Sequence record: PP449093.1
Length of the DNA stretch: 64,000 nucleotides
DNA from: Escherichia coli phage phiS
Strand: one strand, 5' to 3'
Shown here piece by piece: positions 3,310-24,542 of the stretch. The number at the start of each line of letters is the position of its first letter. The first letter of the stretch is position 1. A model generated the notes under the pieces. The model was given only the letters and a program-made list of their open reading frames with translations. It was not told where the DNA came from and made no database searches. A program made the translations under genes and the position numbers.

Positions 3310-3341
3310 ACAACCATCAAAAACAAGTGAGGATTTTTATT

Positions 3342-3509: not shown

Positions 3510-3682
3510 TGGCTACTGTATGGTTATTGATTGCAATCAGCAATTCAATGTATAATTACGGAAATATGTCAAGCATTGAGTTTGCAACAAAGCAGGATTG
3601 CGTTAAAGCTCGCGAGGTTATCCGCGAAGACAATAAACGCTTTATGAATCTGTACTGTGTTGAAAAGCAGAAGGTGAACTAA
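3509..3682 (+). CDS. Small membrane-anchored protein, tandem paralog 1 (57 aa)
   Basis: Not in the ORF track (<60 aa); MATVWLLIAISNSMY hydrophobic N-terminus; TAATG start-stop overlap; paralog of 3682..3849. Confidence 0.4.
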   Translation: MATVWLLIAISNSMYNYGNMSSIEFATKQDCVKAREVIREDNKRFMNLYCVEKQKVN

Positions 3683-3849
3683 TGGCTACATTATGGTTAT
3701 TGCTTTCCGTTAGTGTTGGTGTGTATAATAAAGGCACGGTCACTGGTGTAGAGTTTACATCTCATCAAAGTTGTTTTGAGGCTTTGCGGGAACTACAACA
3801 GGATAGCGAAATAAACAGAAATACTAAGTTCTTTTGTGTTAAAAAGTGA
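3682..3849 (+). CDS. Small membrane-anchored protein, tandem paralog 2 (55 aa)
   Basis: MATLWLLLSVSVGVY N-terminus, same architecture as 3509..3682; TAATG overlap. Confidence 0.4.
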   Translation: MATLWLLLSVSVGVYNKGTVTGVEFTSHQSCFEALRELQQDSEINRNTKFFCVKK

Positions 3850-3918
3850 TAGTGAGGTGAATTAATCCTTCTTCTGGATACCTGATAAATAATGGTATAC
3901 AGAAAAGAGGATTTATTC

Positions 3919-6233: not shown

Positions 6234-6244
6234 TGTTTGTTCAA

Positions 6245-6271
6245 AGTCGCCCATAGTGGCGACTTTTTTTG
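6245..6271 (+). terminator. Rho-independent terminator
   Basis: AGTCGCC cata gt GGCGACT followed by TTTTTTT. Confidence 0.6.
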
Positions 6272-6281
6272 TTATTGGGTG

Positions 6282-6310
6282 TTGACAATCGGATCGTGGT
6301 ATAGCATAAT
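6282..6310 (+). promoter_or_regulatory. sigma70-type early promoter (PeSL-like, degenerate stem): TTGACA - 17 bp - CATAAT
   Basis: TTGACA 6282-6287, CATAAT 6305-6310, conserved leader ...cccatcgaaacGGAGGaacatATG. Confidence 0.55.
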
Positions 6311-6334
6311 GCACCCATCGAAACGGAGGAACAT

Positions 6335-6553
6335 ATGGAAACAGAAGAACAAGTCATTGCATATTTTCATCGTAAAAAGATGAAACTTAGAATCGAAAAA
6401 CAGTACATCAATCACTACATTGACCAAGTTCACTTAACAAGTACACCTTACCTATTCCGGTTGATAAACCCTAGAAAACGGTGGGAGAAGTTGGATAGAA
6501 ACACAAAAATAATTGATAAGCTCACCCAATGGTGGAATGAATACAACAAGTAA
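6335..6553 (+). CDS. Hypothetical protein (72 aa)
   Basis: ORF with GGAGGA RBS downstream of PeSL promoter. Confidence 0.45.
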   Translation: METEEQVIAYFHRKKMKLRIEKQYINHYIDQVHLTSTPYLFRLINPRKRWEKLDRNTKIIDKLTQWWNEYNK

Positions 6554-6560
6554 AAAGTAG

Positions 6561-6589
6561 TTGACACTGAATAACGGGGGTAGTAAGAT
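6561..6589 (+). promoter_or_regulatory. PeSL-like early promoter: TTGACA - 17 bp - TAAGAT
   Basis: TTGACA 6561-6566, TAAGAT 6584-6589, imperfect inverted repeat GGGGGTAGTA/TACTCCC around the -10. Confidence 0.55.
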
Positions 6590-6622
6590 ACTCCCATCGA
6601 AACGAAACAAAGGAGAATCAAA

Positions 6623-6841
6623 ATGAAATTTACTTGCACCGACTCTATCAACAAACACTTTGTAGTGGGCGAAGTATACGAATCTACTACTATTCGTCAA
6701 CGTGACCTGATGGGTCGCCTTTACAATCAGCCAGTATTCATTATTGGTGAAGAATTGTTCTACATTGAAAACCGTCCGTGGGTTGCTTTCAATAAACGAG
6801 GACGCAAGGTAGCAAAATTCGAACTTGTCATTAAAAAGTAG
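6623..6841 (+). CDS. Hypothetical protein (72 aa)
   Basis: ORF with GGAG RBS downstream of PeSL promoter. Confidence 0.45.
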   Translation: MKFTCTDSINKHFVVGEVYESTTIRQRDLMGRLYNQPVFIIGEELFYIENRPWVAFNKRGRKVAKFELVIKK

Positions 6842-6870
6842 TTGACAGCATATCACGGGAGTAGTAAGAT
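6842..6870 (+). promoter_or_regulatory. PeSL-like early promoter: TTGACA - 17 bp - TAAGAT
   Basis: TTGACA 6842-6847, TAAGAT 6865-6870, inverted repeat GGGAGTA gtaaga TACTCCC. Confidence 0.55.
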
Positions 6871-6903
6871 ACTCCCATACCAAAACAACTAAGGAGTATC
6901 AAG

Positions 6904-7302
6904 ATGATTAAATTTCAAACTCGCAAAGACGTTCTGGACTTCGTTAAAGTTTTCGGTTACGCTGCATTGCAACATGCAATGGACAAAATGACCATCTCCC
7001 CAGATCAGACTATGCTGATCCGTATGGTTAAAGCAACCGCCTACAAAAACGACATTACCCTCTCAGAAATCAACGACGGTAATACTGTCCGCGAGGTAAT
7101 TGTTTCTTTCGAATCACCGAAAATTGGCGGTTTTCATACCACGATGTTAGGTGAAATCACTGTCACTGTATACGGGCAAGGTGGCGGAGTGTTTACCGTC
7201 AAAGAAGCAATGGAAAATGGAACGCTGAACAAAGAAAAACTGGAATTTGTCCTGAAAATCATCAAGGAGCGTAACGAAGCTCGCGATATTCTGGAAAGTT
7301 AA
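6904..7302 (+). CDS. Hypothetical protein (132 aa)
   Basis: ORF with GGAG RBS; followed by terminator-like hairpin. Confidence 0.5.
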   Translation: MIKFQTRKDVLDFVKVFGYAALQHAMDKMTISPDQTMLIRMVKATAYKNDITLSEINDGNTVREVIVSFESPKIGGFHTTMLGEITVTVYGQGGGVFTVKEAMENGTLNKEKLEFVLKIIKERNEARDILES

Positions 7303-11344: not shown

Positions 11345-11657
11345 ACAAATTGATAATATCGCACTTCGTGAAGCACTCAAGAAAATGTTTTCGGTCGGTA
11401 CTCACTCTTTGCAGTTTACTAAGAAAGATGGTACTGTCCGTGAGATGATCGCCACGCGAGATCCGGCACTGATGCCGTTTGAAACATACGAAAAGTGGTT
11501 AGTTCCTAATGTTGAAAAACCGCGTAAAGAATCAGAAACATCTTTGCCAGTATATGAAATTGCAGTTGAAGGTTTCCGTAGTTTTGGGCTTGATAGTCTG
11601 ATTAATGTAGATGGATTGACTCCAGCGCAGATCATCGAAATGTACGGTGGTAGTTGA
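11331..11657 (+). CDS. Hypothetical protein (108 aa)
   Basis: ORF in operon context; no recognisable motif. Confidence 0.4.
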   Translation: MIMTEQIDNIALREALKKMFSVGTHSLQFTKKDGTVREMIATRDPALMPFETYEKWLVPNVEKPRKESETSLPVYEIAVEGFRSFGLDSLINVDGLTPAQIIEMYGGS

Positions 11658-12271
11658 CAATGGAAATAAAAGATGATAATATCATATTACCAGCACCGGA
11701 AGAATGGAGACAAGCTGTAGGTTATCCGTGGTATGAAATCTCTAATTATGGTAGATTGAGATCTATTGACCGAAATATCGAATTTTATAGAGAAGTTTCT
11801 CCTGGTAATATTAAGCTAGTAAAACAAAAACGTGCTGGTAAAATAATAAAACCGATTTTAGACCGATATGGGTATTATTATTCAACACTGTCAAAACAAA
11901 AAGACAATGGTAAAATCTCAGTTAAAGCCGAAAAGATACATCGACTTGTAGCAAATGCATTTCTAGGAGACGTTACCGGACTGGAGGTTAACCACATCAA
12001 TGGTGTAAAAACCTGCAATTATGTGTGGAATTTAGAAATAGTAACCTTACTAGAAAATATGAGACATTCATTTAGAACTGGACTCAATAACAATGTTGGT
12101 GAAAACCACTCACGGGCAAAACTGACAAATGCGCAAGTCGAAGAAATAATGCGACTCAAAGGAAAGGTTAAGAAGCAAATTATAGCCGATATGTTTAATG
12201 TTTCTTATTGTTGTATAGCGCAAATACATTCTGGTCTGCGGCGAAATCCAAAGGTCGCTAAATATAAATAA
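11654..12271 (+). CDS. HNH homing endonuclease (NUMOD4 + HNH + C-terminal HTH-like)
   Basis: NUMOD4-like WYEISNYGRLRS; HNH-like VNHINGVKTCNYVWNLEIVTLLENMRHS. Confidence 0.7.
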   Translation: MTMEIKDDNIILPAPEEWRQAVGYPWYEISNYGRLRSIDRNIEFYREVSPGNIKLVKQKRAGKIIKPILDRYGYYYSTLSKQKDNGKISVKAEKIHRLVANAFLGDVTGLEVNHINGVKTCNYVWNLEIVTLLENMRHSFRTGLNNNVGENHSRAKLTNAQVEEIMRLKGKVKKQIIADMFNVSYCCIAQIHSGLRRNPKVAKYK

Positions 12272-13347: not shown

Positions 13348-14830
13348 TATCATTAACCAGCTTGCAGCGACCGACAAAACATCGCTGAAAGAAAAGATCC
13401 TGAAAGAATCCGCAAGTAATGAAACTCTGAAAGAATGCTTTTATCTGGCATATTGCAAACAGGTTACGTTTGGCGTAAAGAAATACGATAAACCATCGCG
13501 TTATTCGTCTGTATTGTCTTTATCCGGTGCATTACAGGTCTTTAAAAATAAACTTGCCACGCGTCAAGTAACTGGTAATGCAGCATTACAGCTAGTTACC
13601 GATACTCTGACTTGCTTGTCAGAGGATGATGCTAAAGTTGCAATGATGGTCCTGAATCGTGATCTGGAGTGTGGTTGTTCCGCTACCACTGCAAACAAGG
13701 TATGGAAGAAACTGATCCCCCAGCAACCGTGCCACCTTGCATCGTCATGTTCTGATAAGACTATTGCCAATATCAAATATCCGGCGTATGCACAACTTAA
13801 AAGCGATGGCGCTCGTGGTATGGCTGATATTGACGGGGAAACATTAGCAATCTATACCCGCTCAGGTAATACCTATCAAGGGCTTGATGATTTGTTTGCG
13901 GTTTTAGAGCGTCTACGAGGCCGTGGAATTGTTCTAGATGGCGAATTGGTATATATGCCTACCCTTTCGCAAACACCAGCGCAGAACTTCGTTGAGAGCG
14001 TTTATGATGGTACTCTGTCATGGATATTTGAAGAAGAGGAAATGCCATTAACGCCAGTAGCGGAAGCAGTGAAAGAATCCGTTGTTGCAGATCGTCAGAC
14101 CGGAAATGGTATCCTCAACAAATCACTTAAAGGAACTATTCCAAAAGAAGAAGCCCAATGTATTGTTTACACTGTCTGGGATGTTATCGACCGTGATGTG
14201 TATTACGGAAACGAGAAAGCAACGAAGCAATATAAAGATCGATTCGAAGAACTAAAACAGATTGTTGAAGAACTTAACGATCCTCGTGTTCAGATAATCG
14301 AAAATACTGTAGTTAACAATATCGATGAAGCTCGCGAAGTATATCATCGCTATGTAAACATGGGATTAGAAGGCATTATCCTTAAAAATTTACATGGTGT
14401 ATTTGAAGATCGTCGCAGTAAAGATCAGGTTAAATTTAAAGAAGTGATTGACTTCGACGCGGAAATTGTTGATGTATATCCGCATAGTAAAGATCCTAAT
14501 AAGGTAGGCGGTTTTACTGTCCGTAGTGCGTGCGGACGAATGATGACTAACACCGGATCGGGATTGACCGACACCACAACCGAAAAAGGCGATGATGGTA
14601 TTGAACGTGTGATTCCGTTTGACCGTCGAAATGAACTTGACCGAGAAATGTTATGGGCTGACCGTCATAACCTGATTGGAAAAGTCATTGAGATGACATG
14701 CAACGGGTATATCCGCAGCAAATCACGTAAAGAAGATGAACCGGAGTTCTCTTTATTTCTCCCAATCATAAAACGTATTCGCTACGACAAGACCACTGCA
14801 AATACAGTAAAAGAGGTATTCGATGTGTGA
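13334..14830 (+). CDS. 30: ATP-dependent DNA ligase
   Basis: Adenylation motif AQLKSDGARG (KxDG); overall resemblance to T4 gp30; RBS GAGGTGA. Confidence 0.95.
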   Translation: MSILNIINQLAATDKTSLKEKILKESASNETLKECFYLAYCKQVTFGVKKYDKPSRYSSVLSLSGALQVFKNKLATRQVTGNAALQLVTDTLTCLSEDDAKVAMMVLNRDLECGCSATTANKVWKKLIPQQPCHLASSCSDKTIANIKYPAYAQLKSDGARGMADIDGETLAIYTRSGNTYQGLDDLFAVLERLRGRGIVLDGELVYMPTLSQTPAQNFVESVYDGTLSWIFEEEEMPLTPVAEAVKESVVADRQTGNGILNKSLKGTIPKEEAQCIVYTVWDVIDRDVYYGNEKATKQYKDRFEELKQIVEELNDPRVQIIENTVVNNIDEAREVYHRYVNMGLEGIILKNLHGVFEDRRSKDQVKFKEVIDFDAEIVDVYPHSKDPNKVGGFTVRSACGRMMTNTGSGLTDTTTEKGDDGIERVIPFDRRNELDREMLWADRHNLIGKVIEMTCNGYIRSKSRKEDEPEFSLFLPIIKRIRYDKTTANTVKEVFDV

Positions 14831-15299
14831 TAATGAAGGGGCGAAAGCCCCTAAACCTAAAAAATTGTCAAAGAAAGAGCAACGCCAGATCCTGAAAATG
14901 AAATATGGTGGACGTTGTGCCTATTGTGGCGAGGAACTAGGGGATCGCTGGCACGCAGACCACATCAAACCAGTATTGCGACGCTCAAAGGTAGTCTATG
15001 ATGAAAATGGACGAATTGCCCGTAATGATGATGGATCGTGGAAGTATAAGGTTGTAGGAATGCATAAACCGGAGCATGATATACTTGATAACATGAATCC
15101 GGCGTGTGTGCAATGCAATCTTTACAAAAGCTGTATGGGCTTAGAATACTGGCGTAAGTGTATACGCGAGAACTTCCAGAAGTACATTCAGCACAATATG
15201 GGATTGCGAGCGGCTAAACGCTTTGGCTTGCTGTCAATTCATGACCAGCCAGTAGAATTTTATTTCGAAAAGTACGAGCGCGAGCATCAAGAAAAATAA
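14823..15299 (+). CDS. HNH nuclease (McrA-like zinc-finger HNH)
   Basis: CAYCG ... HADHIKP ... CVQCNLYK pattern typical of HNH nucleases. Confidence 0.65.
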   Translation: MCDNEGAKAPKPKKLSKKEQRQILKMKYGGRCAYCGEELGDRWHADHIKPVLRRSKVVYDENGRIARNDDGSWKYKVVGMHKPEHDILDNMNPACVQCNLYKSCMGLEYWRKCIRENFQKYIQHNMGLRAAKRFGLLSIHDQPVEFYFEKYEREHQEK

Positions 15300-15313
15300 T
15301 TCAAAAAAAGTTG

Positions 15314-15342
15314 TTGACAGGGGATCACCGATCCCCTATACT
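15314..15342 (+). promoter_or_regulatory. PeSL-like early promoter: TTGACA - 17 bp - TATACT
   Basis: Spacer is the perfect inverted repeat GGGGATC acc GATCCCC. Confidence 0.6.
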
Positions 15343-15387
15343 ACACACATCAAAACGAAACACACTTTCTTAAACGGAGAATCAAAA

Positions 15388-15555
15388 ATGTTCCAGACTA
15401 AAGCAGAATGCGAAGCATACATTGTAGCAAACCACGGTGAAGACTACCTGAAATTCGATATCGTAGTAGCACAGAAGATCACCGGAATGGTTGCAAAATA
15501 TCTGGGTGTTAAAGAAGGTTACTATCCAAGCAACGCACCAGAAATTAACAAATAA
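15388..15555 (+). CDS. Small protein (55 aa), paralog of 18645..18812
   Basis: Not in ORF track; MFQTKAECEAYIVANHGEDYLKFDIVVAQK...; near-identical second copy at 18645. Confidence 0.5.
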   Translation: MFQTKAECEAYIVANHGEDYLKFDIVVAQKITGMVAKYLGVKEGYYPSNAPEINK

Positions 15556-15558
15556 TAG

Positions 15559-15587
15559 TTGACAATGATTAAAGGGAGTAGTAAGAT
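15559..15587 (+). promoter_or_regulatory. PeSL-like early promoter: TTGACA - 17 bp - TAAGAT
   Basis: Inverted repeat GGGAGTA gtaaga TACTCCC. Confidence 0.55.
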
Positions 15588-15619
15588 ACTCCCATAAAGA
15601 CAACAAACGGAGAATCAAA

Positions 15620-15799
15620 ATGAAAGCTATCGAAGTTCAGAAGTACATGGAACTCATCATTGAAGGTAAAGCACATACAGTATTGACTACCCACGTAGGA
15701 TATGATAAAAATGTGCATATGCTGGTAGACAATATCGGTTGGATGAAGTTTAATCCTAACGAGAATGTACAAGCTCAAGAAATGACCATCCCTTTCTAA
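15620..15799 (+). CDS. Hypothetical small protein (59 aa)
   Basis: ATG with GGAG RBS downstream of PeSL. Confidence 0.4.
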   Translation: MKAIEVQKYMELIIEGKAHTVLTTHVGYDKNVHMLVDNIGWMKFNPNENVQAQEMTIPF

Positions 15800-15811
15800 G
15801 AGGAATATATT

Positions 15812-16090
15812 ATGATGCGAATTACTGCAACGCTGGATAAGACACACAAAGAAAGATTTTTCGGTATGATCTTAAAAACGCCGATTTTCGATAATTACCT
15901 TTATGTTGACTATGACGGTCACATTAGCTATAAATGTAAAAATGATATTCGTGATTCCTTTGGTGATAAATCACAAGCCGATATTCATGACCACTGGTGG
16001 AACCATGACGAACCTTTACGAGTTATCGCAGTTGATGTAAAAACAACAAAAGAAGCTGATAAGGTAGTGAATGATTATGAGCAAATTTAA
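15812..16090 (+). CDS. Small protein, member A of a 4-copy paralog family (HxHW motif)
   Basis: YLYVDYDGHISY ... HDHWW ... RVIAVDV shared with 16491, 16816 and 17513 ORFs. Confidence 0.5.
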   Translation: MMRITATLDKTHKERFFGMILKTPIFDNYLYVDYDGHISYKCKNDIRDSFGDKSQADIHDHWWNHDEPLRVIAVDVKTTKEADKVVNDYEQI

Positions 16091-16286
16091 AGAATACAAA
16101 GCATATCAACAGATTTTGCGAGTATACGCACCAGAGTTCGCCGAAAAGATGATGGAAGATGCATCAAAATGCCCGTCCTTTTCTGGAAACAAAAACCATT
16201 ATTCGACTGGTATTGTGTCATGGAAAGAAACCGCATATACTCAACAATGGATAGAGGTTTTCTCAAAAACTCTTGATTGGTGTTAA
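16077..16286 (+). CDS. Small protein, tandem paralog 1 (MSKFK family)
   Basis: MSKFKEYKAYQQI...MMEDA...WKETAY; paralog of next ORF. Confidence 0.45.
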   Translation: MSKFKEYKAYQQILRVYAPEFAEKMMEDASKCPSFSGNKNHYSTGIVSWKETAYTQQWIEVFSKTLDWC

Positions 16287-16288
16287 TT

Positions 16289-16504
16289 ATGAGCAAATTT
16301 AAAGATTATCGAGCATATAAAGCGATCTGCGATATATTCGATGAAAAGACCGCTCATGCAATGATGGAAGATGCAGAACAATATGAATCATTCGTCAATT
16401 CCAAAGATTGCACAGTAAACGGGATTGTGTGCTGGAAAGATACAAAGTATGAAGAAAAATGGATTACTGTGTATTACGGAGAACTAGAATATGAAATTAA
16501 CTAA
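16289..16504 (+). CDS. Small protein, tandem paralog 2 (MSKFK family)
   Basis: MSKFKDYRAYKAI...MMEDA...WKDTKY. Confidence 0.45.
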   Translation: MSKFKDYRAYKAICDIFDEKTAHAMMEDAEQYESFVNSKDCTVNGIVCWKDTKYEEKWITVYYGELEYEIN

Positions 16505-16811
16505 AAAGATTTTCCCAGAATTGCGTAACTGTCTGTTATTGGTTACTGAATATAAGCCGTATGCGATCTACTTGTATGTTGATGAAAATCTGAAAATCCG
16601 TTACTATGATTATACGTCTCCAGTGATGAAATCATTTGCTCACTCGATAGCAAATAACTGTATGAATCACAATCATTGGGTATCAGAAACGGATGACGAT
16701 GCGTCAGAAGTTGTAGTGGTTGCATGGAATCTATCACCAGCGGAAGCAGATCAAGCACGCATTAAGCATTATGCGAAAAACAATTGGTTTGACCTTATAA
16801 GTGAGGACTAA
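16491..16811 (+). CDS. Small protein, member B of the 4-copy paralog family
   Basis: ELRNCLLL...YLYVDENLKIRYYDY...HNHW...VVVVAWNL. Confidence 0.5.
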   Translation: MKLTKKIFPELRNCLLLVTEYKPYAIYLYVDENLKIRYYDYTSPVMKSFAHSIANNCMNHNHWVSETDDDASEVVVVAWNLSPAEADQARIKHYAKNNWFDLISED

Positions 16812-16815
16812 TATT

Positions 16816-17094
16816 ATGTTCAAAGTAGGTGATAAGTTTATTCTTAGTCGTGATATTCTACCTAATCTGAAAGGTTGTATCATCAATCCTAGTAAAAATT
16901 CATGGTTTTATCTGTTTATCGACGACAAACTGAATGTACGCGCCGAATATAAAGAAGGTCTTCGCACTGGCCTCGGTTTCTTTAACGATCACGATCATAG
17001 CCATTGGCTAAACGGTGGATTCGAAGCAACGGTGCTCGCGGTTGATGTGACCTACACAAACATCATAGAAAAATATCAAAAAATTATTTTATAA
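16816..17094 (+). CDS. Small protein, member C of the 4-copy paralog family
   Basis: FYLFIDDKLNVRAEY...HSHW...VLAVDVT. Confidence 0.5.
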   Translation: MFKVGDKFILSRDILPNLKGCIINPSKNSWFYLFIDDKLNVRAEYKEGLRTGLGFFNDHDHSHWLNGGFEATVLAVDVTYTNIIEKYQKIIL

Positions 17095-17100
17095 AAAGTG

Positions 17101-17129
17101 TTGACATAAGATCGGGTGTATAGCATAAT
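17101..17129 (+). promoter_or_regulatory. PeSL-like early promoter: TTGACA - 17 bp - CATAAT
   Basis: Inverted repeat GGGTGTAT agcataa TACACCC. Confidence 0.6.
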
Positions 17130-17175
17130 ACACCCATCGAAACGAGATACACTTTCTAACTAGGAGAATCAAATT

Positions 17176-17463
17176 ATGGCATACATCACCATCACTCTGA
17201 AAGTTAACAAATTTGCTCACGCTGCACACGAAACCGATAATGCAATCCGTAACAACAAGTTCGCACGTCTGGTACGCGATGCGGTAGCTAAAGAGTTCAA
17301 CTTCAAATTTGCCGATGGTAAAGTTATCACTAAATGGACTCATGACGGCGAAACTAAAGTAGAACTTGCTGACAACTTCGCAAATCAGGAATATGCACAC
17401 CGTCGCATTAATGAAATTATCAGCGATGAACTCTACTACGGTGTACAGGAAGGACTGTTTTAA
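17176..17463 (+). CDS. Hypothetical protein (95 aa)
   Basis: GGAG RBS, downstream of PeSL. Confidence 0.45.
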   Translation: MAYITITLKVNKFAHAAHETDNAIRNNKFARLVRDAVAKEFNFKFADGKVITKWTHDGETKVELADNFANQEYAHRRINEIISDELYYGVQEGLF

Positions 17464-17512
17464 TATATGGGGCGTTAAGCCACTTTTAATCTATCTGAAT
17501 GAGGATATCACT

Positions 17513-17821
17513 ATGAAAAATCTTGTAGTTGAATTTACCCGCGAGAATTTACCACAATTACGCAACTCTCTGCTTAAACTAGAGAACAGTAATTATGATG
17601 TATATTTTTACATCACAGAAGACCTAGAGATCCTTTACGCAGATTATCCAGGTCCGATCCGTACTTTCGAAACAGCATCAAAGTATAAAAATGTTTACGG
17701 TCATGAGCACTGGTTACGAGAAAACCCAGGTCGCAAGAAAGCACGCGTTAAAGTGCTGGCGATTGACATAACACCAGCATACGCCGACCGGATTGCACAG
17801 AATGATTATTTGTCTAAATGA
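17513..17821 (+). CDS. Small protein, member D of the 4-copy paralog family
   Basis: LPQLRNSLLKL...VYFYITEDLEILYADY...HEHW...VLAIDIT; GAGGA RBS. Confidence 0.5.
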   Translation: MKNLVVEFTRENLPQLRNSLLKLENSNYDVYFYITEDLEILYADYPGPIRTFETASKYKNVYGHEHWLRENPGRKKARVKVLAIDITPAYADRIAQNDYLSK

Positions 17822-17828
17822 TTTTATT

Positions 17829-17855
17829 AGCCGACCTTAGCGTCGGCTTTTTTAT
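17829..17855 (+). terminator. Rho-independent terminator
   Basis: AGCCGAC cttagc GTCGGCT followed by TTTTTT. Confidence 0.6.
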
Positions 17856-17877
17856 TGCATAAAATTTTAAAAAAGAA

Positions 17878-17906
17878 TTGACACCAGATCACGCCTATAG
17901 CATAAA
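17878..17906 (+). promoter_or_regulatory. PeSL-like early promoter: TTGACA - 17 bp - CATAAA
   Basis: Conserved leader ...cacccatcaaaacgagataccacttaGGAGaatcaaacaATG. Confidence 0.5.
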
Positions 17907-17947
17907 TACACCCATCAAAACGAGATACCACTTAGGAGAATCAAACA

Positions 17948-18217
17948 ATGGCACTGACTAAAACCACTACCAACTTTGCAAAACGTCACGGCTTCGACCT
18001 TGAAATCAATAGCTTTAACGATTACACCCTTCTGTGTGTATATGAAATCGAAAATGATTGCGAGTGGATGTTCAGCTATCGCGTAAACGAAGACGGATCT
18101 TTCACTTGGAACGGAAATATCTATCTTGCACAGGAAGTAAAAGAAGAACTTCCGGCGACCATCAAAGATGAGAAACATTTACGTCAAGTTTTAAAATTTA
18201 TTTCTGAAAATATCTAA
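17948..18217 (+). CDS. Hypothetical protein (89 aa)
   Basis: GGAG RBS, PeSL upstream. Confidence 0.45.
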   Translation: MALTKTTTNFAKRHGFDLEINSFNDYTLLCVYEIENDCEWMFSYRVNEDGSFTWNGNIYLAQEVKEELPATIKDEKHLRQVLKFISENI

Positions 18218-18225
18218 AAAAGTTG

Positions 18226-18254
18226 TTGACACTAAAGTAAGAACATAGCATAAT
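18226..18254 (+). promoter_or_regulatory. PeSL-like early promoter: TTGACA - 17 bp - CATAAT
   Basis: Consensus hexamers with 17-bp spacing. Confidence 0.55.
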
Positions 18255-18287
18255 ACACCCATACCGAAACGAACTGGAGAATCAAAA

Positions 18288-18569
18288 ATGAAATTCATCA
18301 AAGCAACCGAAATCCTGAAAAACAAAGAAGCATACATCGGAAACATCGTTGGTATGAACATTCGCGGCGCTGGTAGCCAGTGGACCAAACTGGTTGATGT
18401 TAAAGCTAAAGGCGATAAAATTGAGTTCACTGTAAAAATGCTTACGCATAACGCACATATGGGTATCAAGACAAAAACGATGGCAGCAGATAAAAGCATT
18501 AACTATCAGGATCTGGGTGATTGGCTGAACTGGTGCAAAATGCACAACATCGAAACTAATCACGAATAA
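18288..18569 (+). CDS. Hypothetical protein (93 aa)
   Basis: GGAG RBS, PeSL upstream. Confidence 0.45.
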   Translation: MKFIKATEILKNKEAYIGNIVGMNIRGAGSQWTKLVDVKAKGDKIEFTVKMLTHNAHMGIKTKTMAADKSINYQDLGDWLNWCKMHNIETNHE

Positions 18570-18582
18570 TTTAAAAAAGTTG

Positions 18583-18611
18583 TTGACGGGGATCGGGAGA
18601 TCCCCTATAAT
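18583..18611 (+). promoter_or_regulatory. PeSL-like early promoter: TTGACG - 17 bp - TATAAT
   Basis: Inverted repeat GGGGATC ggga GATCCCC. Confidence 0.6.
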
Positions 18612-18644
18612 ACACACATACCGAAACGAAATAGGAGAATCAAA

Positions 18645-18812
18645 ATGTTCGAGACTAAAGCAGCATGTGAAGCATATATCATTGAAACCTACGGTGAAGA
18701 TTATCTGAAATTTGACATTGTAGTAGCACAGAAGATTGTAGGGATGGTTGCGAAATACCTGGGTGTTAAAGAAGGTTACTATCCTAGCAACGCACCAGAA
18801 ATTAACAAATAA
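18645..18812 (+). CDS. Small protein (55 aa), paralog of 15388..15555
   Basis: MFETKAACEAYIIETYGEDYLKFDIVVAQK... Confidence 0.5.
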   Translation: MFETKAACEAYIIETYGEDYLKFDIVVAQKIVGMVAKYLGVKEGYYPSNAPEINK

Positions 18813-18826
18813 TTTTATAAAAAGTG

Positions 18827-18855
18827 TTGACAGGGGAGGATAACTCCCCTACAAT
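18827..18855 (+). promoter_or_regulatory. PeSL-like early promoter: TTGACA - 17 bp - TACAAT
   Basis: Inverted repeat GGGGAG gataa CTCCCC. Confidence 0.55.
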
Positions 18856-18895
18856 ACAACCATCAAAACGAGATACCACTTAGGAGAATCAAACA

Positions 18896-19147
18896 ATGGC
18901 TAACATCGAAACCGCAAAGAAAATCGCTAAAGACCTGAACGTTAAAGGCTTCCGTAAACTGAAATTACAGCGTGTACGCTACACCATCGGCAAACAGTGC
19001 TCTTTCATGAGCGAAGAAATTGCTAACAGCCTGATTGATAACCTGATTGCGGCTGGCTGGGAAGTTGCGGATCTGAAAACTTGCCGCGAACTGGCTAACA
19101 AAGGTCTTTTAGATTCTGTTACTATCAAACCAATGGGGGCAGCGTGA
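18896..19147 (+). CDS. Hypothetical protein (83 aa)
   Basis: GGAG RBS, PeSL upstream. Confidence 0.45.
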   Translation: MANIETAKKIAKDLNVKGFRKLKLQRVRYTIGKQCSFMSEEIANSLIDNLIAAGWEVADLKTCRELANKGLLDSVTIKPMGAA

Positions 19148-19680
19148 ACAATATAGACTGGAAGAAATACTTTAATTATGATCCTGATACTGGTATTCTT
19201 ACATGGAAGGAGAGAACAGATATACACCCATCAAGAATAAAACAATGGAATGCTGCATGGGCTGGAAAGGAGGTCGGGTCACTAGGAAGTGGTGGACGTT
19301 ATCTTGAATCGTCAATAAAAATTGACGGTAAAATTATTAACTACAAAGTTCATCGAGTATGTTATATTATCCACAATGGACCTATACCAGAAGGATATGA
19401 AGTAGACCATATTAATCACATTAAGACAGATAATAGAGCGGTGAATTTTGAACTTAAGACACATCAAGACAACATGAGGAATCAAACAAAATCTAAAAAG
19501 AATACAAGCGGACACAGTGGAATACATAAAAACAAATACAATAAATGGGTAGTTAGAATTGGCAGCGGTCGTCGTGGTGATAGAAAATATCTAGGATGCT
19601 TCGATACATTAGAAGAAGCTATAGAGGTTAGAACCAAAGCAGAAAGAGAGCATGGCTATCATGAAAACCACGGAAAGTAA
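19144..19680 (+). CDS. HNH endonuclease with C-terminal AP2-like DNA-binding domain; GTG start
   Basis: HNH core YEVDHINHIKTDNRAVNFELKTHQDNMRNQ; AP2-like GIHKNKYNKWVVRIGSGRRGDRKYLGCFDTLEEAIEVR. Confidence 0.7.
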   Translation: MNNIDWKKYFNYDPDTGILTWKERTDIHPSRIKQWNAAWAGKEVGSLGSGGRYLESSIKIDGKIINYKVHRVCYIIHNGPIPEGYEVDHINHIKTDNRAVNFELKTHQDNMRNQTKSKKNTSGHSGIHKNKYNKWVVRIGSGRRGDRKYLGCFDTLEEAIEVRTKAEREHGYHENHGK

Positions 19681-20386
19681 ACTTATATTCTGTAATTTTG
19701 ATGGGTCCGGTATCATGGGTCTAGAATGGGCGAAAGCAGGTCATAAGGTGATCTGCTTTAACGCAGATGATGCGGATCATGGAACATATAAAAAATACAA
19801 CACTCGATTTGAGCATCCCAACCTAACATATGTTAATGCATGGATTGACCTAGATTGGTTGGAAAGGGCAATGGACCTTGAATGGGGCAAACCGGATATG
19901 ATCTTTGCGTTTCCTAGCTGTTCAAATTTAGCGGTTAGTGGCGCTGCACATTTTGAGCGTAAGCGAAAAACTCTAGGTCCACTCATTCAGCATAGAGATG
20001 TTCAAACAGCTAAAATAACCGCTTATTTGGGTGAATGGCTAGGAGTTCCCTACATGATAGAGAATCCTGTAAGCGTTATCTCTAGCATGTGGCGTAAGCC
20101 TGATTATATGTTCCATCCGTGGGAATATGGCGGTTATTTGCCGGAAGATGATAAACATCCTACTTTTCCTGAGTATATTGCCGCCCGTGATATGTACCCG
20201 AAAAGGACTTGCTTATGGACCGGACAAGGCTTTATAATGCCAGAAAAGAAACCGTTGCAGATTAATAAAGGGTACAGTAAACAGCATTCTAAGCTAGGCG
20301 GGAAAGGAACGAAAACAAAGACTATAAGGTCACTTACCCCGCGAGGATTCGCAAAGGCAGTATTTGAAGCAAATAAGGATCTATAA
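19652..20386 (+). CDS. Compact cytosine-C5 methyltransferase-like protein (catalytic domain only)
   Basis: Motif I-like FCNFDGSGIMG, motif IV-like DMIFAFPSCSNLAVSG (PSC instead of canonical PCQ), motif VI-like MIENP; start overlaps 3' end of the HNH-AP2 gene. Confidence 0.55.
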   Translation: MAIMKTTESKLIFCNFDGSGIMGLEWAKAGHKVICFNADDADHGTYKKYNTRFEHPNLTYVNAWIDLDWLERAMDLEWGKPDMIFAFPSCSNLAVSGAAHFERKRKTLGPLIQHRDVQTAKITAYLGEWLGVPYMIENPVSVISSMWRKPDYMFHPWEYGGYLPEDDKHPTFPEYIAARDMYPKRTCLWTGQGFIMPEKKPLQINKGYSKQHSKLGGKGTKTKTIRSLTPRGFAKAVFEANKDL

Positions 20387-20715
20387 TGAGATTGTTTAAG
20401 TATTCGCTAACGTCAAATTACGATAAACAAGGTCATTGCATCCGTTGCCCTGATTGTCATAACCATAACATCGAAAGCAAGATCACCGATCATATTGATG
20501 GACTTTGGTCGCCAGCAAGTGAAATAGAATACTATTGCGCTGATTGTGGAATTGTAGTAGCATATTGGGCATACGGATCATATGATCCATACTTCCAGAT
20601 GGGAGAGCGTTCAATCCCTGCGCTTATCTGGAGAATTAAGAACAATATCCGCCATTCATGGGATGAGTTATTAAAAGATATTGATTTACGTGATGATCCA
20701 TTCAGGAGACTATAA
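20386..20715 (+). CDS. Zinc-ribbon protein (two CxxC pairs)
   Basis: CIRCPDC ... CADCG. Confidence 0.45.
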   Translation: MRLFKYSLTSNYDKQGHCIRCPDCHNHNIESKITDHIDGLWSPASEIEYYCADCGIVVAYWAYGSYDPYFQMGERSIPALIWRIKNNIRHSWDELLKDIDLRDDPFRRL

Positions 20716-20716
20716 C

Positions 20717-21235
20717 ATGAACAGATTAACCCCTAAACGCCGTTACTATACCAATACTAAAAACTTTGTCATCTCTGTTTATGAGGCGTGGTTAGAAGAT
20801 GGCTATATCAACATGAACCCAGATTATCAGCGTCCTTTGGTATGGGACACCGAAAACAAACGTATGTTTATCGAAAACCTGATTAATGATTTTCCGGTTG
20901 GTGCTATCGCAATGGCTAAGATTGATGATGGCTCTCGATATGAGATCGAAATCGTGGACGGTAAACAGCGTTTAAACGCAATATTCTCCTTCATGAAGGA
21001 TGAGTTTAGCATTGCTGGTAATGATGATTCTATGCTGTATTACAGTGATTTTACGCCAGCAGAAAAGCGACGTTTCCGAAATCTCGGACTACCCGCGATA
21101 ATGATGGAAGAGAGCACACGAGAAGACCGATTAGAGTATTTCTACAAAACAAACTTTTTCGGTGTCCCTCAATCGGAAGAACATCGCCAGCATGTGATTT
21201 CCCTATTGCAAGATGAGCAATTAAAAAATAACTAA
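20717..21235 (+). CDS. Standalone DUF262 (ParB/Srx-like NTPase domain) protein
   Basis: PDYQRPLVW ... IVDGKQRLNAI matches the DUF262 signature (DxQR ... DGQQR); AGGAGA RBS before ATG 20717. Confidence 0.55.
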   Translation: MNRLTPKRRYYTNTKNFVISVYEAWLEDGYINMNPDYQRPLVWDTENKRMFIENLINDFPVGAIAMAKIDDGSRYEIEIVDGKQRLNAIFSFMKDEFSIAGNDDSMLYYSDFTPAEKRRFRNLGLPAIMMEESTREDRLEYFYKTNFFGVPQSEEHRQHVISLLQDEQLKNN

Positions 21236-21242
21236 AAAGTTG

Positions 21243-21272
21243 TTGACAGGGGGATCGGTGATCCCCTATAAT
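21243..21272 (+). promoter_or_regulatory. PeSL-like early promoter: TTGACA - 18 bp - TATAAT
   Basis: Inverted repeat GGGGGATC ggt GATCCCC. Confidence 0.55.
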
Positions 21273-21308
21273 GCACACATACCGAAACGAACTACTAAGG
21301 AGTATCAA

Positions 21309-21521
21309 ATGGCTAACATCGAAATCATCATTACCGACGTAACTTATGACCGCATTAACGAAATCGGTACTGCATTACTGGAAGATGAAACAACTCGTAC
21401 CATCAACTACGCAGAATACGTTGAAATGCGTGGCTGGATTAAACGAGTAGGAAAATATACCCTGATTGAAAAAGACTATTCAGGATATACCTTAGAGCAA
21501 TTGCTCGATGGTGCATTATAA
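21309..21521 (+). CDS. Hypothetical protein (70 aa)
   Basis: ATG with GGAG RBS; followed by terminator hairpin. Confidence 0.45.
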   Translation: MANIEIIITDVTYDRINEIGTALLEDETTRTINYAEYVEMRGWIKRVGKYTLIEKDYSGYTLEQLLDGAL

Positions 21522-21526
21522 TAAAG

Positions 21527-21546
21527 GGGGCGTTAAGCCCCGTTTT
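21527..21546 (+). terminator. Terminator-like hairpin
   Basis: GGGGC gttaa GCCCC followed by GTTTT. Confidence 0.45.
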
Positions 21547-21587
21547 CATAAATATAGGTTTATAGGTTATCAACTAGAGGATATAAA

Positions 21588-23639
21588 ATGTTTAACTTAG
21601 AAATCGACGATCTAATGATTGAATCTTTCGAGAAATGGCTGTTGACGGAAGAGGAAGAAAACTTTGGTAGTATTGCCCCGGTACAGTGCTTAAAGCCTAA
21701 GCAGAATCCTAAACAGCTTTTTGCAGTACAGACACGCGATAAAGATGTGATTGTCCGTCTTTGTAACTTCACCAACAAAACACCTAAAATCATTCGTATG
21801 GGTGACAAGACAGCACATGTTGTACTGTGCGAAATGAACAAAAGCGGTCGTATTGTACAGCTTAAAAATGGTCTAGGCGATAACCCGATTGCAGTTATGG
21901 CAAGTGCTTTTGATGTGGTTATGGAAACAGCCCGTAAAGCGCAATTAGACGCTGTTATGTTCCGTTTTAACGTATCCCGCATGAAAGGTAAGACCGAACT
22001 GGTTAAGCGCGTTATAGAGCGTTTGGTGCGTCGTACACCGAAGTTTGAAGTATTCCAGCAGGAAGTAATGACCAGCAAAAAGATCGCTTTAGTTGTTGTC
22101 AAGCGTCGCGGTATGGCGATTGATAAGATTAAAGGGATTAAACTTGATGATTCCTTGTTCACTAAAGTAGAAAGTGATTTAGGTGATCGCTGGGTATCTA
22201 AGGCTACTGGTGAATCTCTGACTAAAGATGAGGCGTATGCGGCTAGTCTTGTGTCAGAAGAAGAACGAAACGCGGAAGCGGAACAACGCGTAGCGGCTAA
22301 ATCTCGTTTGACTAAAGAAGAAATGCTGAAAACTCAAGCGACCTATAACAGCGACTATGTGAATCATCCAGAAAAAATTAATCTTAAACCGGAAGAAGAT
22401 ATCACCGAAGCCGAACCTAAGAAACAGTTTAATACTCTGATTGATCGTCAAGCCTTAGAACGTTCAACCGCTCGTTCTCTGAATGAATGGACAAGTGATA
22501 TTATCACTCGCTATGGTTTCATGCGTACTATTTTTGAAAGCGAAGCCGATGCAAAATACGCAGTAAGCGAACTGGTAAAAGTTCAGGATCAATATGATCC
22601 GTTGTCTGCGGAAGTTATCGCAGCATCAATCAAACGCTTAAAAGAAATCATGAGCGAGGAAGTATTCGAAAACAAGATCACCGCCCTGGCAATGGATCGA
22701 GTAGACCAGTCTATGCCAGCAGATGTAAAAGCTGAAATGCTGCGTAGTCATATCACCCAGATTAAAACCGATGCCCTACGTAATGTTGCTTCCGGTATGT
22801 TTGAAGCAATTGCTAGCAACATGGGTGAAATGATGGCAGATATTGATCTTGATCTGCCGGGCGCGGAAGGTTTTGTATTGAGCGAATATGCCGATGCAGC
22901 ATACATCAATATGAACAACTTCCTAACCGACCGTAAGCTGGAAGAGTTTGAAGGCATCGCAGATCCAGAAGAATTGGTCAAGATGTGCGATGCACTGGAT
23001 AATGCCTTCTCTAACTATGGTGTTAAACTTGATCCGGGTACTATTCTGTATCGTGGTATGGACTTCCGGTCGCAAATGTGGGAAACTGCACGTAAGCAAA
23101 AAGCGTTTTACTTTAAAAACTATGTGAGCACTTCCCTTGCACCTAACATTTTTGGTGGCTGGAATGCAAACGTGGCTAGTGCCATTGCTGGTGTTGATTC
23201 TATGGCTGGCTCTCGCGGTGAAGGTGGCGCTAATGTTGCTTTCTCCATTGCTGGCGCGGAAAACATCCCTGTATTGCCAGTAGGTAACAAAGCATTTGCT
23301 TACAAAGAATGCGAGATTTTACTTCCTCGCGGTGTTGTGTTATCCTTTGATACGGTAACTCGTGCTACGGCATCGACGGATTCACAAGAAACATATTACA
23401 TTGAGGCACATATTATGAACAAAAGTGAACTGGCAGCATTACAAGAATCTGGCGAAATGATCGCGGACGGTGATGCATTCATCCGTGAAGGTGTTGTTAA
23501 ACCTGCTTCTGACCTGTCTTTCTCCAGCTTCATTAGCGAAGCTAAAACCGAACGTAAGAAAGCAGATAAGGCAACTCTACGTCAGCTTATCGCTGATCTG
23601 GTATCTGTAGACGCAATGCCAGATAAATTTAAAATGTAA
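21588..23639 (+). CDS. alt: ADP-ribosyltransferase Alt (head-packaged)
   Basis: 683 aa (T4 Alt is about 682); R-S-E catalytic triad motifs LYRG, VSTSLAP, ECEILLPRG; CATAAATA late-promoter-like box at 21547-21554. Confidence 0.85.
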   Translation: MFNLEIDDLMIESFEKWLLTEEEENFGSIAPVQCLKPKQNPKQLFAVQTRDKDVIVRLCNFTNKTPKIIRMGDKTAHVVLCEMNKSGRIVQLKNGLGDNPIAVMASAFDVVMETARKAQLDAVMFRFNVSRMKGKTELVKRVIERLVRRTPKFEVFQQEVMTSKKIALVVVKRRGMAIDKIKGIKLDDSLFTKVESDLGDRWVSKATGESLTKDEAYAASLVSEEERNAEAEQRVAAKSRLTKEEMLKTQATYNSDYVNHPEKINLKPEEDITEAEPKKQFNTLIDRQALERSTARSLNEWTSDIITRYGFMRTIFESEADAKYAVSELVKVQDQYDPLSAEVIAASIKRLKEIMSEEVFENKITALAMDRVDQSMPADVKAEMLRSHITQIKTDALRNVASGMFEAIASNMGEMMADIDLDLPGAEGFVLSEYADAAYINMNNFLTDRKLEEFEGIADPEELVKMCDALDNAFSNYGVKLDPGTILYRGMDFRSQMWETARKQKAFYFKNYVSTSLAPNIFGGWNANVASAIAGVDSMAGSRGEGGANVAFSIAGAENIPVLPVGNKAFAYKECEILLPRGVVLSFDTVTRATASTDSQETYYIEAHIMNKSELAALQESGEMIADGDAFIREGVVKPASDLSFSSFISEAKTERKKADKATLRQLIADLVSVDAMPDKFKM

Positions 23640-23656
23640 TTTTTAAGAAATAATGG

Positions 23657-23685
23657 TTGACTCAAACGGGGACTAGTTTTATACT
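23657..23685 (+). promoter_or_regulatory. PeSL-like promoter: TTGACT - 17 bp - TATACT, doubling as terminator hairpin after alt
   Basis: Hairpin ACGGGGACTAGT ... ACTAGCCCCGT plus TTTT; hexamers at consensus spacing. Confidence 0.5.
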
Positions 23686-23717
23686 AGCCCCGTTTTCTGT
23701 TATATGGGAGGTTTAAA

Positions 23718-24542
23718 ATGTTCAAGAAATTACAGGATTTTCGTCTTTCGGAAGAAGCACGCGAATCAATGATGGAACGTATGGATAATTACATCGAAAC
23801 ATATGGCATCGAGGGGATTAATGGTTACATGATCACTGAGATGATCAGCGATCAGATTAACTTTGATGATTATGTGAAGGTTATCCGCTTCCTTGAGCGT
23901 GAGACACAAGATTATGGATTTGTCAAGAAAATCATTAATGTGATGTATGAAGTACACTCCGAAGACTTTGGAGATAATGTATTCAAACATTACAAACATA
24001 ACAATATAACCCCAGCAGAATATAATGCAATCTGTGATTATGTGTCTGAACAATACGAATGGGTAAATGGTGCTCTCTTAGGGGAAGAAGACATGACCGA
24101 TGAGATATCAGAGATTGTTGATTTGATGGATTGTGTCATGGATAAAACCGAAAAGTTAAACGGTACTCTTTATCGCGGTCAACATCTTGACATTCAGACA
24201 ATAGAGCGTATTATTGAAGATAAGGAATTTACCTTTAAAAACTTTGTGTCGACCAGCATGACACCAATCATCTTTGGAGGCTGGCTTTCAAACAGCACTA
24301 GCCTTTATTGTGAGAATCGATATGAATCAATGACCGGAAAGATGCAACATTCTTGTAATGTATCGTGGGTAATTGACGTAAAAGATCATAAAGGTTTTGT
24401 CGTTGGGTCAATTGCATGGAACCCTTGCGAATGTGAAGTAATTTTACCGCGCGGGACTTGCGTCAAGGTAAACGACGTAGTAGAATCTTTCGGCGATGAG
24501 AATCGTAGACAATTTACAATTTTCGGTGAGGTGACTAAATGA
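23718..24542 (+). CDS. Second ADP-ribosyltransferase (Alt/Mod-like, 274 aa)
   Basis: LYRGQHL, FVSTSMTPIIFGGW, ECEVILPRG parallel the Alt catalytic motifs. Confidence 0.7.
   Translation: MFKKLQDFRLSEEARESMMERMDNYIETYGIEGINGYMITEMISDQINFDDYVKVIRFLERETQDYGFVKKIINVMYEVHSEDFGDNVFKHYKHNNITPAEYNAICDYVSEQYEWVNGALLGEEDMTDEISEIVDLMDCVMDKTEKLNGTLYRGQHLDIQTIERIIEDKEFTFKNFVSTSMTPIIFGGWLSNSTSLYCENRYESMTGKMQHSCNVSWVIDVKDHKGFVVGSIAWNPCECEVILPRGTCVKVNDVVESFGDENRRQFTIFGEVTK

Follow-up and report, generated by a model that had tools for sequence, protein, structure and literature searches.

Within the 64-kb window analysed here, that is, the whole stretch of DNA taken from the sequence record PP449093.1 of Escherichia coli phage phiS, a region of small open reading frames (ORFs; positions 15314-23685) is punctuated by short cassettes, each of which combines a promoter-like sequence with, as a rule, an inverted repeat. 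These cassettes raise the questions of which family of elements they represent, what the inverted repeats do so close to a promoter, and whether a cassette and the ORF behind it travel together. We found that the repeats are real but already described, being the known promoter-early stem-loop (PeSL) cassettes of RB49/phi1-type coliphages. The label 'PeSL-like', which had been chosen in a sequence-only reading of the window, matches the literature for the same genus and the same locus (Arbiol, Comeau, Kutateladze, Adamia & Krisch 2010, Genome Biol Evol 2:140, PMC2839356; hereafter Arbiol et al. 2010). It is highly probable that the elements are composite regulatory cassettes of the phi1/RB49 kind, in which early promoters, hairpins and recombination patches are combined.

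The pattern TTGAC-N18-TANNNT occurs 18 times in the window against 3.65 expected, a count reached in none of 100 shuffles, and the leader block GGAGAATCAAA, with one mismatch at most, occurs 11 times against 2.2 expected. A profile hidden Markov model built from the 13 copies (named here by the first position of the -35 hexamer) refound all of them at E <= 4e-8, which is a match by construction, and its next best match in the 64 kb had E = 0.03. An unbiased BLAST comparison of the window with itself yielded pairs of PeSLs only, plus one unrelated pair (38262/38411). The PeSL family is real and is the dominant DNA repeat of the window, the similarity between pairs of copies spanning 48-120 bp. 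All 13 copies lie exactly where the sequence-only reading had placed them, and each carries the TTGAC(A/G/T) hexamer described there (13/13), followed by a spacer of 17 bp in 12 copies and of 18 bp in copy 21243. A TATAAT-like -10, also claimed throughout, is found with A at the second and T at the sixth position in 12 of the 13; copy 17878, with CATAAA, breaks this rule. Similarly, the conserved leader takes the form of a GGAG(A/T)ATCAA block in ten copies, while copies 3281, 6282 and 23657 have other Shine-Dalgarno sequences. To speak of 'at least 13' copies was fair, as a weaker PeSL-like element is found at 37034-37096 and a hairpin-free promoter at 37640-37667. TTGACA-type matches at 881, 9551, 9871, 10555, 11654, 13267, 16789 and 39317 were rejected as PeSLs, as they lie within ORFs, have neither hairpin nor leader, and do not match the profile.

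Each PeSL occupies the gap after the stop codon of the preceding gene, with the upstream ORF ending 0-56 nt before the -35 hexamer (13/13). In most copies an A-rich tract (aaaaagt(t/a)g) lies 5' of this hexamer; the tract is T-rich in copy 6282 and only short in copy 3281. The core is a near-consensus sigma-70 promoter (TTGACA-17 bp-TAtAAT) with C-rich positions -3 to -1 and a predicted A start, which was placed 7 nt after the -10 hexamer, on the A of CC(C)AT. Behind a leader of 18-40 nt (AUCGAAACGA...) come the Shine-Dalgarno block with GGAG, GGAGAAUCAAA, and the start codon (ATG) of the next gene, and in all 13 copies a Shine-Dalgarno sequence and ATG are found at 18-40 nt past the predicted +1. 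Conservation runs ~40 nt past the promoter, into the leader and the Shine-Dalgarno sequence. The CATAAA of copy 17878 results from a 1-nt insertion relative to the CATAAT of its orthologues, and this copy is the only variant without CATAAT at the site among eight genomes; the promoter, which lies upstream of the ORF194 homologue, may have been weakened by the insertion.

The window derives from a Krischvirus, i.e., an RB49/phi1-like, T4-type coliphage, with 95-97% identity to phi1, RB49, JSE, GEC-3S and G5211. When segment 15000-24000 and the whole of 1-25000 were compared with ~60 published Krischvirus genomes, none of those matched was identical to the window, which therefore represents a further member of the genus. 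The gene order (td-nrdA-nrdB-denA-rnlA-pseT-cd-31-30, an HNH gene, ~25 small ORFs, alt and an ADP-ribosyltransferase gene, then baseplate genes on the opposite strand) is collinear with phi1 ORFs 235 to 181. Positions 15314-23685 correspond to phi1 ORFs 205-183, and the region is collinear with phi1 ORFs 183-212, the hyperplastic region that supplied the PeSLs on which the definition and the tests were based (Arbiol et al. 2010, PMC2839356). As defined in phi1 and RB49, a PeSL comprises a sigma-70-consensus early promoter, an AT-rich upstream tract with the previous stop codon, a G(n)...C(n) stem-loop, and a Shine-Dalgarno sequence with ATG; the stem-loop takes one of five positions (within the spacer, across the -35 or across the -10, 5' of the -35, or 3' of the -10), and ~52 PeSLs per genome are concentrated in hyperplastic regions, upstream of ORFans (PMC2839356). 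The ORFs downstream of the PeSLs in the window fall in PHROGs of unknown function.

The activity reported in vivo is that of PeSL193/192, PeSL206/205 and the PeSL211/210 stem-loop in lacZ fusions, PeSL206/205 being a strong promoter of ~13,000 Miller units (PMC2839356). The promoter core of copy 15314 is identical to that of phi1 PeSL206/205 from -35 to about +7. In addition, the window copies fit the consensus of the early promoters of RB49, namely G at -33, either T or C at -12, and C-rich positions -3 to -1; this consensus is in agreement with mapped 5' ends (Nolan et al. 2006, PMC1524935; the mapping is that of Desplats et al. 2002 as cited there). Judged from the shared core of copy 15314 and from the RB49 mapping, initiation downstream of these hexamers appears in effect to have been addressed for the orthologues. 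In the GEC-3S record, promoters are annotated at sites orthologous to elements of the window; a literature search for transcriptomics of Krischvirus gave nothing relevant. When IMG/VR was scanned for the hairpin-promoter pattern and the leader 16-mer, one Krischvirus contig (164,706 bp) only was found to carry them, and the ~40 other matches of the leader 16-mer were single chance matches, which therefore give no evidence of the PeSL sequence family outside Krischvirus. By every sequence-level criterion, the elements in the window are members of the PeSL family, most of them orthologues or recombinant derivatives of the defining copies.

Do cassettes and ORFs move together? Window positions 1-25100 were aligned to seven Krischvirus genomes, matches were chained and structural differences were listed. 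Five of the ten distinct differences have a junction on a PeSL (Table 1), and 4.7% of these 25.1 kb is PeSL sequence (binomial P of five or more out of ten, 4.6e-5; 3.7e-4 with 25 bp of slop on each side). At four of these five junctions, 42-97 bp of the window can be aligned with both PeSLs that flank the site in the relative, a signature of recombination between repeats; at the fifth, copy 18583, the overlap is 2-9 bp only. Three-way alignments showed that copy 6842 is chimeric, with its left part from phi1 PeSL227/226 and its right part from PeSL226/225, and that copy 21243 is likewise a chimera, of phi1 PeSL187/186 (left) and PeSL186/185 (right). Copy 15314 is a mosaic that has the flank and leader of PeSL212/210 and the core of PeSL206/205, with the five phi1 ORFs 210-206 gone, an arrangement shared only with G5211 among the seven relatives. 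The crossover points of the three chimeras differ, one being near the -35, one in the leader and one mosaic. At a single PeSL site RB49 carries ORF192 and JSE carries ORF199, which have no similarity to each other. Furthermore, a PeSL-ORF unit is duplicated within the window (15295-15556 vs 18565-18813; 81.5% nucleotide and 87% amino-acid identity).

Thus, the proposal that cassette-ORF units move as blocks is borne out in the seven genomes, where whole units occur or are missing, the junctions falling within PeSLs, and the modular shuffling proposed with it is supported by these junctions, the chimeric PeSLs and the unrelated cargo at one PeSL site. The further suggestion that each unit was 'independently acquired' stands if it is taken as shuffling within the phage gene pool: the GC content of the ORFan region (0.36-0.40 at 15-21 kb vs 0.39-0.43 elsewhere) shows no difference from the rest of the genome, which suggests that the cargo circulates in that pool and does not come fresh from hosts.

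Three of the five differences with no junction on a PeSL are free-standing homing-endonuclease genes, which are a separate, well-known source of plasticity. Four genes of this type are found in the window, at 3892-4566 (NUMOD3), 11654-12271 (NUMOD4+HNH_3), 14823-15299 (HNH) and 19144-19680 (HNH_3); the second is missing in all five relatives whose locus covers the site, and the fourth stands in place of the 246-bp ORF189.1 of phi1. There are also tandem paralogues, namely 15812-16090, 16491-16811, 16816-17094 and 17513-17821 (25-35% identity, with a common 'HW' motif), 16071-16286 and 16289-16504 (43%), and 3509-3682 and 3682-3849 (36%). Operons driven by PeSLs contain these tandem families, whose members have no flanking PeSLs of their own, suggesting that local duplication works alongside PeSL shuffling.

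Table 1. PeSLs of the window, a possible degenerate copy, and structural differences with a junction on a PeSL (z, fold against dinucleotide shuffles)
Feature	Positions	Strand	Promoter and stem-loop	Unit driven, cargo and remarks
PeSL 3281, after nrdA	3273-3341	+	-35 TTGACG 3281-3286; hairpin GCGGGGA/TCCCCGC 3286-3303 in spacer; -10 TATAAT 3304-3309	55-aa ORF 3342-3509 (phi1 ORF233 homologue); fold -19 kcal/mol, z -5.2; leader without GGAG block
PeSL 6282, stem-loop upstream of -35	6234-6334	+	terminator 6243-6266 + T-run; -35 TTGACA 6282; -10 CATAAT 6305-6310	ORF 6335-6553; no significant internal hairpin (z +0.28)
PeSL 6561	6554-6622	+	-35 at 6561; hairpin GGGGGTA/TACTCCC 6576-6595 overlapping -10 TAAGAT, one G.U pair	ORF 6623-6841; hairpin weak (z -1.15)
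PeSL 6842	6842-6903	+	-35 at 6842; hairpin GGGAGTA/TACTCCC 6857-6876 over -10; z -3.0	ORF 6904-7302
PeSL 15314, directly 3' of HNH gene	15300-15387	+	-35 at 15314; hairpin AGGGGATC/GATCCCCT 15319-15337 in spacer; -10 TATACT	ORF 15388-15555 (ORF205 homologue)
PeSL 15559	15556-15619	+	-35 at 15559; hairpin GGGAGTA/TACTCCC 15574-15593 over -10 TAAGAT; z -3.7	operon 15620-17094, six small ORFs
PeSL 17101	17095-17175	+	-35 at 17101; hairpin GGGTGTAT/ATACACCC 17114-17135 over -10 CATAAT; z -3.4	ORF 17176-17463
PeSL 17878, stem-loop upstream of -35	17822-17947	+	terminator 17829-17848 + T-run; -35 at 17878; damaged -10 CATAAA	ORF 17948-18217; no internal hairpin
Promoter and conserved leader 18226, no stem-loop	18218-18287	+	-35 at 18226; -10 CATAAT; z +0.45	ORF 18288-18569; in alignment, 3' arm (TACACCC) of 17101-type hairpin kept, 5' arm decayed; identical state in 7/7 relatives
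PeSL 18583	18570-18644	+	-35 TTGACG at 18583; hairpin GGGGATC/GATCCCC 18588-18605; -10 TATAAT	ORF 18645-18812, paralogue of 15388-15555
PeSL 18827	18813-18895	+	-35 at 18827; hairpin GGGGAGG/ACTCCCC 18832-18850; -10 TACAAT; -19.4 kcal/mol, z -5.2	operon 18896-21235 including HNH gene, methyltransferase homologue and GmrSD_N-domain ORF
PeSL 21243, 18-bp spacer	21236-21308	+	-35 at 21243; hairpin GGGGGATC/GATCCCCT 21249-21267; -10 TATAAT; z -1.85	ORF 21309-21521
PeSL 23657, after alt	23640-23717	+	-35 TTGACT at 23657; bulged hairpin 23664-23695 overlapping -10 TATACT, then TTTTCTGTT (canonical terminator form)	ADP-ribosyltransferase ORF 23718-24542; -19 kcal/mol, z -4.1; poorest family-profile match of the 13
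Possible 14th, degenerate PeSL, after hoc (35808-37022)	37034-37096	+	terminator AGCCATCC/GGGTGGCT (37034-37053) + T-run, then TCGACA-16-TATAAT	
Difference with PeSL junction	6829-6915			ORF226 unit in phi1 and RB49, absent here
Difference with PeSL junction	15283-15390			ORFs 211/210-206 in phi1, RB49 and JSE, absent here and in G5211
Difference with PeSL junction	17830-17926			RB49 extra ORFs 196.1-195 inserted at copy 17878
Difference with PeSL junction	18565-18576			ORF192 unit in RB49, G2494 and FL38; unrelated ORF in JSE; hot spot at copy 18583
Difference with PeSL junction	21232-21309			ORF186 unit in 7/7 relatives, absent here

The remaining question is what the inverted repeats do. 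A GC-rich inverted repeat in or beside the spacer had been claimed for every copy, and ten of the 13 do have a stable hairpin inside or overlapping the promoter, with z mostly -2.3 to -5.2 against dinucleotide shuffles and the weakest folds in copies 6561 and 21243. Copies 6282 and 17878 have instead a canonical hairpin + T-run terminator 15-30 bp 5' of the -35, and copy 18226 has none. A stem-loop is accordingly present in 12 of the 13 copies, in the spacer of five (3281, 15314, 18583, 18827 and 21243), over the -10 of five (6561, 6842, 15559, 17101 and 23657) and upstream of the -35 of two. Each of the ten in-promoter hairpins has its 5' arm upstream of the predicted +1, so that the mRNA started by the cassette itself cannot fold the hairpin and only RNA reading in from upstream can.

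The stems were compared among 66 distinct promoter-like sequences that passed one simple filter in eight genomes, nearly all of them PeSLs and a few intragenic. The two classes of hairpin overlapping the -10 were analysed separately, a joint alignment having been abandoned with the stems in different registers. Stem sequences vary between copies and between orthologues with the pairing kept (for instance, GGGTGTA/TACACCC vs GGGGATA/TATCCCC). The orthologue of copy 17101 in phi1 and GEC-3S has GGGGATAT/ATATCCCC vs GGGTGTAT/ATACACCC in the window, with two adjacent pairs changed on both sides, and in the 6842-type stem A-U, G.U and G-C are all seen at one pair. All five single-side variants form G.U (G.T) on the + strand and A.C on the - strand, and none of them is a wobble on the - strand. 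These patterns support, short of proof, a structure that acts on the sense strand, most simply as RNA.

In the sequence-only reading the hairpin was taken probably to terminate or stabilise the upstream transcript; we keep as the best reading that it serves as an attenuator or terminator of incoming transcripts. The stem-loop of PeSL211/210 behaved in a terminator-like manner, cutting downstream lacZ about as much as rrnB T1 did (Arbiol et al. 2010, PMC2839356), and it is of the GGGGATC...GATCCCC type, like copies 15314 and 21243; this published assay cannot separate termination from other polar effects. Several points weigh against reading the elements as promoters coupled to attenuators. A hairpin with a U-tract is found in three of the 13 copies only (6282, 17878 and 23657), and the family as a whole does not have the form of intrinsic terminators. 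Nine of the ten in-promoter hairpins lack a U-tract, with 1-3 T in the next 8 nt, and because of this efficient intrinsic termination is not predicted by standard models. Only a small number of independent events (3 pair positions) underlie the covariation, with shuffle controls that are marginal. The hairpin-free copy 18226 and the flawed -10 of copy 17878 count in the same direction, and what is known of promoter or terminator activity comes from plasmid lacZ assays of no more than three or four orthologous PeSLs.

The nine U-less hairpins, none of which is listed by terminator scans of the + strand, would fit with a role as 3'-end protectors or processing barriers, at which read-through RNA is trimmed back and the upstream message is stabilised while the polymerase largely continues. 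Canonical hairpin + T-run terminators occur close by, at 6243, 17829, 21527, 23664 and 25024, suggesting that the phage uses the standard form where termination is wanted, and the G.U-only wobble variants indicate that the structure matters in the sense RNA. Nevertheless, the reduction of downstream lacZ by the PeSL211/210 stem-loop argues that expression does not pass freely, and we regard protection or processing as a live, though less likely, alternative to attenuation.

Could the palindromes act as DNA, either as operators of a dimeric phage repressor that switches early promoters off or as cruciform/hairpin targets of a recombination enzyme that makes the units mobile in the manner of integrons? 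The space separating the -35 from the -10 is the classic operator position, and indel junctions coincide with PeSLs. In addition, Arbiol et al. speculated that GGGG...CCCC may be bound by a recombination protein, and PeSL mini-circles around ORFs 191-194 and 210 were detected by inverse PCR in RB49 and phi1 (PMC2839356). The mini-circle ORFs belong to the same hyperplastic region; homologues of 191, 193 and 194 are present here, and 192 and 210 are absent from this genome. Nevertheless, the palindromes differ between copies (GGGGATC, GGGAGTA, GGGTGTA, CGGGGA and GGGGAG) and shift in position, lying in the spacer or further on, over the -10, which makes sequence-specific protein binding unlikely. 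It is pairing that is kept, not sequence, and the G.T intermediates are C.A mismatches on the other strand. Moreover, the chimera crossovers lie at different places, as expected of general homologous recombination and not of site-specific cleavage, and no integrase or recombinase gene was found among the ORFs scanned with Pfam and PHROGs, which were part of the window's ORFs only. Action at the DNA level thus seems improbable.

Least credible of all is the idea that the elements are merely strong consensus promoters, alike through tandem gene duplication and with incidental inverted repeats: some downstream ORFs are indeed paralogous (15388/18645; tandem families 15812-17821), so part of the repetition does stem from duplication, but among the ORFs that come first behind the 13 copies a single pair is homologous, most of the ten hairpins are more stable than dinucleotide shuffles, the stems are kept by compensatory change, and the conserved sequence reaches well beyond the promoter.

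Some further features of the hairpins and units deserve mention. The commonest spacer hairpin, GGGGATC...GATCCCC (15319-15337, 18588-18605 and 21249-21267), places two GATC (Dam) sites in the promoter spacer. In the operon behind copy 18827, 19652-20386 is the homologue of an ORF annotated as a DNA methyltransferase in relatives, with no Pfam hit here, and 20717-21235 is the GmrSD_N-domain ORF. Rfam and ARAGORN searches of the whole window revealed no known RNA family and no tRNA.

The leader suggests a further component. GGAG is found in the ribosome-binding site of 12 of the 13 PeSL-led genes vs four of the 26 operon-internal genes of the same early region (Fisher P = 5e-6), the internal genes (1-25000, + strand) having mostly GAGG, AGGA or weaker ribosome-binding sites. 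This suggests two classes of translation-initiation region, possibly differing in sensitivity to the endoribonuclease RegB. In early mRNAs of T4, the target of RegB with S1 has the consensus GGAGRAYARAA (Durand et al. 2006, PMC1702504), a GGAG Shine-Dalgarno sequence followed by an A-rich tract, and GGAGAAUCAAA agrees with it at 10 of 11 positions, as found in eight copies. Of the 18 near-matches to this consensus in the window, eight are leaders of PeSLs. A RegB homologue is encoded by Krischvirus genomes (42% identity to T4 RegB, E = 4e-25), and the RB49 RegB cuts GGAG in vivo. Against the link, GGAGAAUCAAA has C for A at consensus position 8, no regB gene was found within the 64-kb window, and the modelled accessibility of the GGAG sites is predicted to be no higher than the RNA average. 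The link was not made in the PeSL papers (PMC2839356; PMC4122927). We tentatively propose, as a possibility that falls short of being probable, that a PeSL is a three-part module composed of a promoter, an upstream-facing hairpin and a RegB/S1 endoribonuclease site in GGAGAAUCAAA. If this is the case, any ORF landing behind a PeSL would get an immediate-early ON signal, insulation from its neighbours and a RegB-timed OFF signal; selection for such a shared timer would help explain leader conservation beyond the need of ribosome binding, and hence homology enough for shuffling.

Taken together, a PeSL unit would work as follows. Host RNA polymerase would fire the promoter immediately after infection, as lacZ fusion and 5'-end mapping indicate for orthologues, and the hairpin would attenuate or cap transcripts arriving from the preceding unit, as was seen with one orthologous hairpin and is extrapolated to the rest, so that each unit would be transcriptionally insulated. 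The ~100 bp of shared sequence would offer a homology patch to the phage recombination machinery, and PeSL-bounded ORFs are deleted, inserted or swapped with chimeric PeSLs left behind, as the genome comparison above shows. Finally, the GGAG block might make the first gene of a unit a target of RegB and thereby allow an early switch-off. Few concrete mechanisms have been proposed by which large lytic phages acquire, lose and exchange accessory genes while leaving adjacent transcription units intact, and PeSLs are one of them. The window is another natural example, with three PeSL-bounded deletions that left chimeric scars and an empty site that holds different cargo in RB49 and JSE. Conceptually, it changes nothing; what it still has to offer concerns the role of the hairpins that lack a U-tract, and the possible RegB module.

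Two sites outside the hyperplastic region may be degenerate PeSLs. The first, at 37034-37096 (Table 1), is not detected by the family profile and follows hoc, which was stated to be PeSL-associated (Arbiol et al. 2010, PMC2839356). At the second, ~550 bp beyond it at 37640-37667, an A-rich tract precedes a perfect promoter of the extended -10 type (TTGACA-16-TGTTATAAT), and there is no hairpin. The unrelated pair returned by the self-comparison lies in a 385-bp ORF-free stretch at 38208-38592 (+ strand), between a terminator (38188-38207) and a DprA-like ORF (38593-39180), and consists of a ~77-bp direct repeat (38262-38338 vs 38411-38487, 78% identity). In 32 of 58 Krischvirus records this stretch has an identity of 99% or more, vs ~96% for the early region; it carries no annotated feature in Krischvirus records and gave no Rfam hit, and its RNA fold is not significant (z -1.27). 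Genes for small RNAs, a cluster of promoters or a replication origin could reside there.

Among known systems, integron gene cassettes are alike in that small ORFs, arrayed and supplied with a promoter, are exchanged as units, via circular intermediates, at imperfect-palindrome sites; PeSL units differ in having no integrase among the ORFs scanned, no attC/attI architecture, a promoter for each unit and apparently homologous recombination. The morons of lambdoid phages (Hendrix et al. 2000) are likewise single accessory genes with their own promoter and terminator between resident genes. Nevertheless, morons deviate in GC content and are often oriented the other way, and their signals are not the vehicle of mobility, whereas the PeSL units of the window have the GC content of the genome average, are co-directional and have their junctions inside the regulatory element; they are thus not morons. 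Closer are the PeSL/PmSL elements of T4/PST and KVP40/nt-1, which are also promoter + stem-loop linkers in hyperplastic regions with ORF swaps (Comeau, Arbiol & Krisch 2014, PMC4122927). Their promoters (TTTACW...TAYWAT or TTGYVH...TAWWAT) and stems (AGNA-loop-TCNT or A3-4G3-loop-C3T3-4) differ from those in the window, and their stem-loops lie mostly upstream of the promoter (PMC4122927); they are analogues of the window elements, not sequence homologues. With the PeSLs of phi1 and RB49, in contrast, the window elements share genus, locus, orthologous copies, anatomy, the association with ORFans and indels, and chimeric junctions. The window departs from phi1 by its three PeSL-bounded deletions (the ORF226 unit, ORFs 210-206 and the ORF186 unit), and there is no difference of kind.

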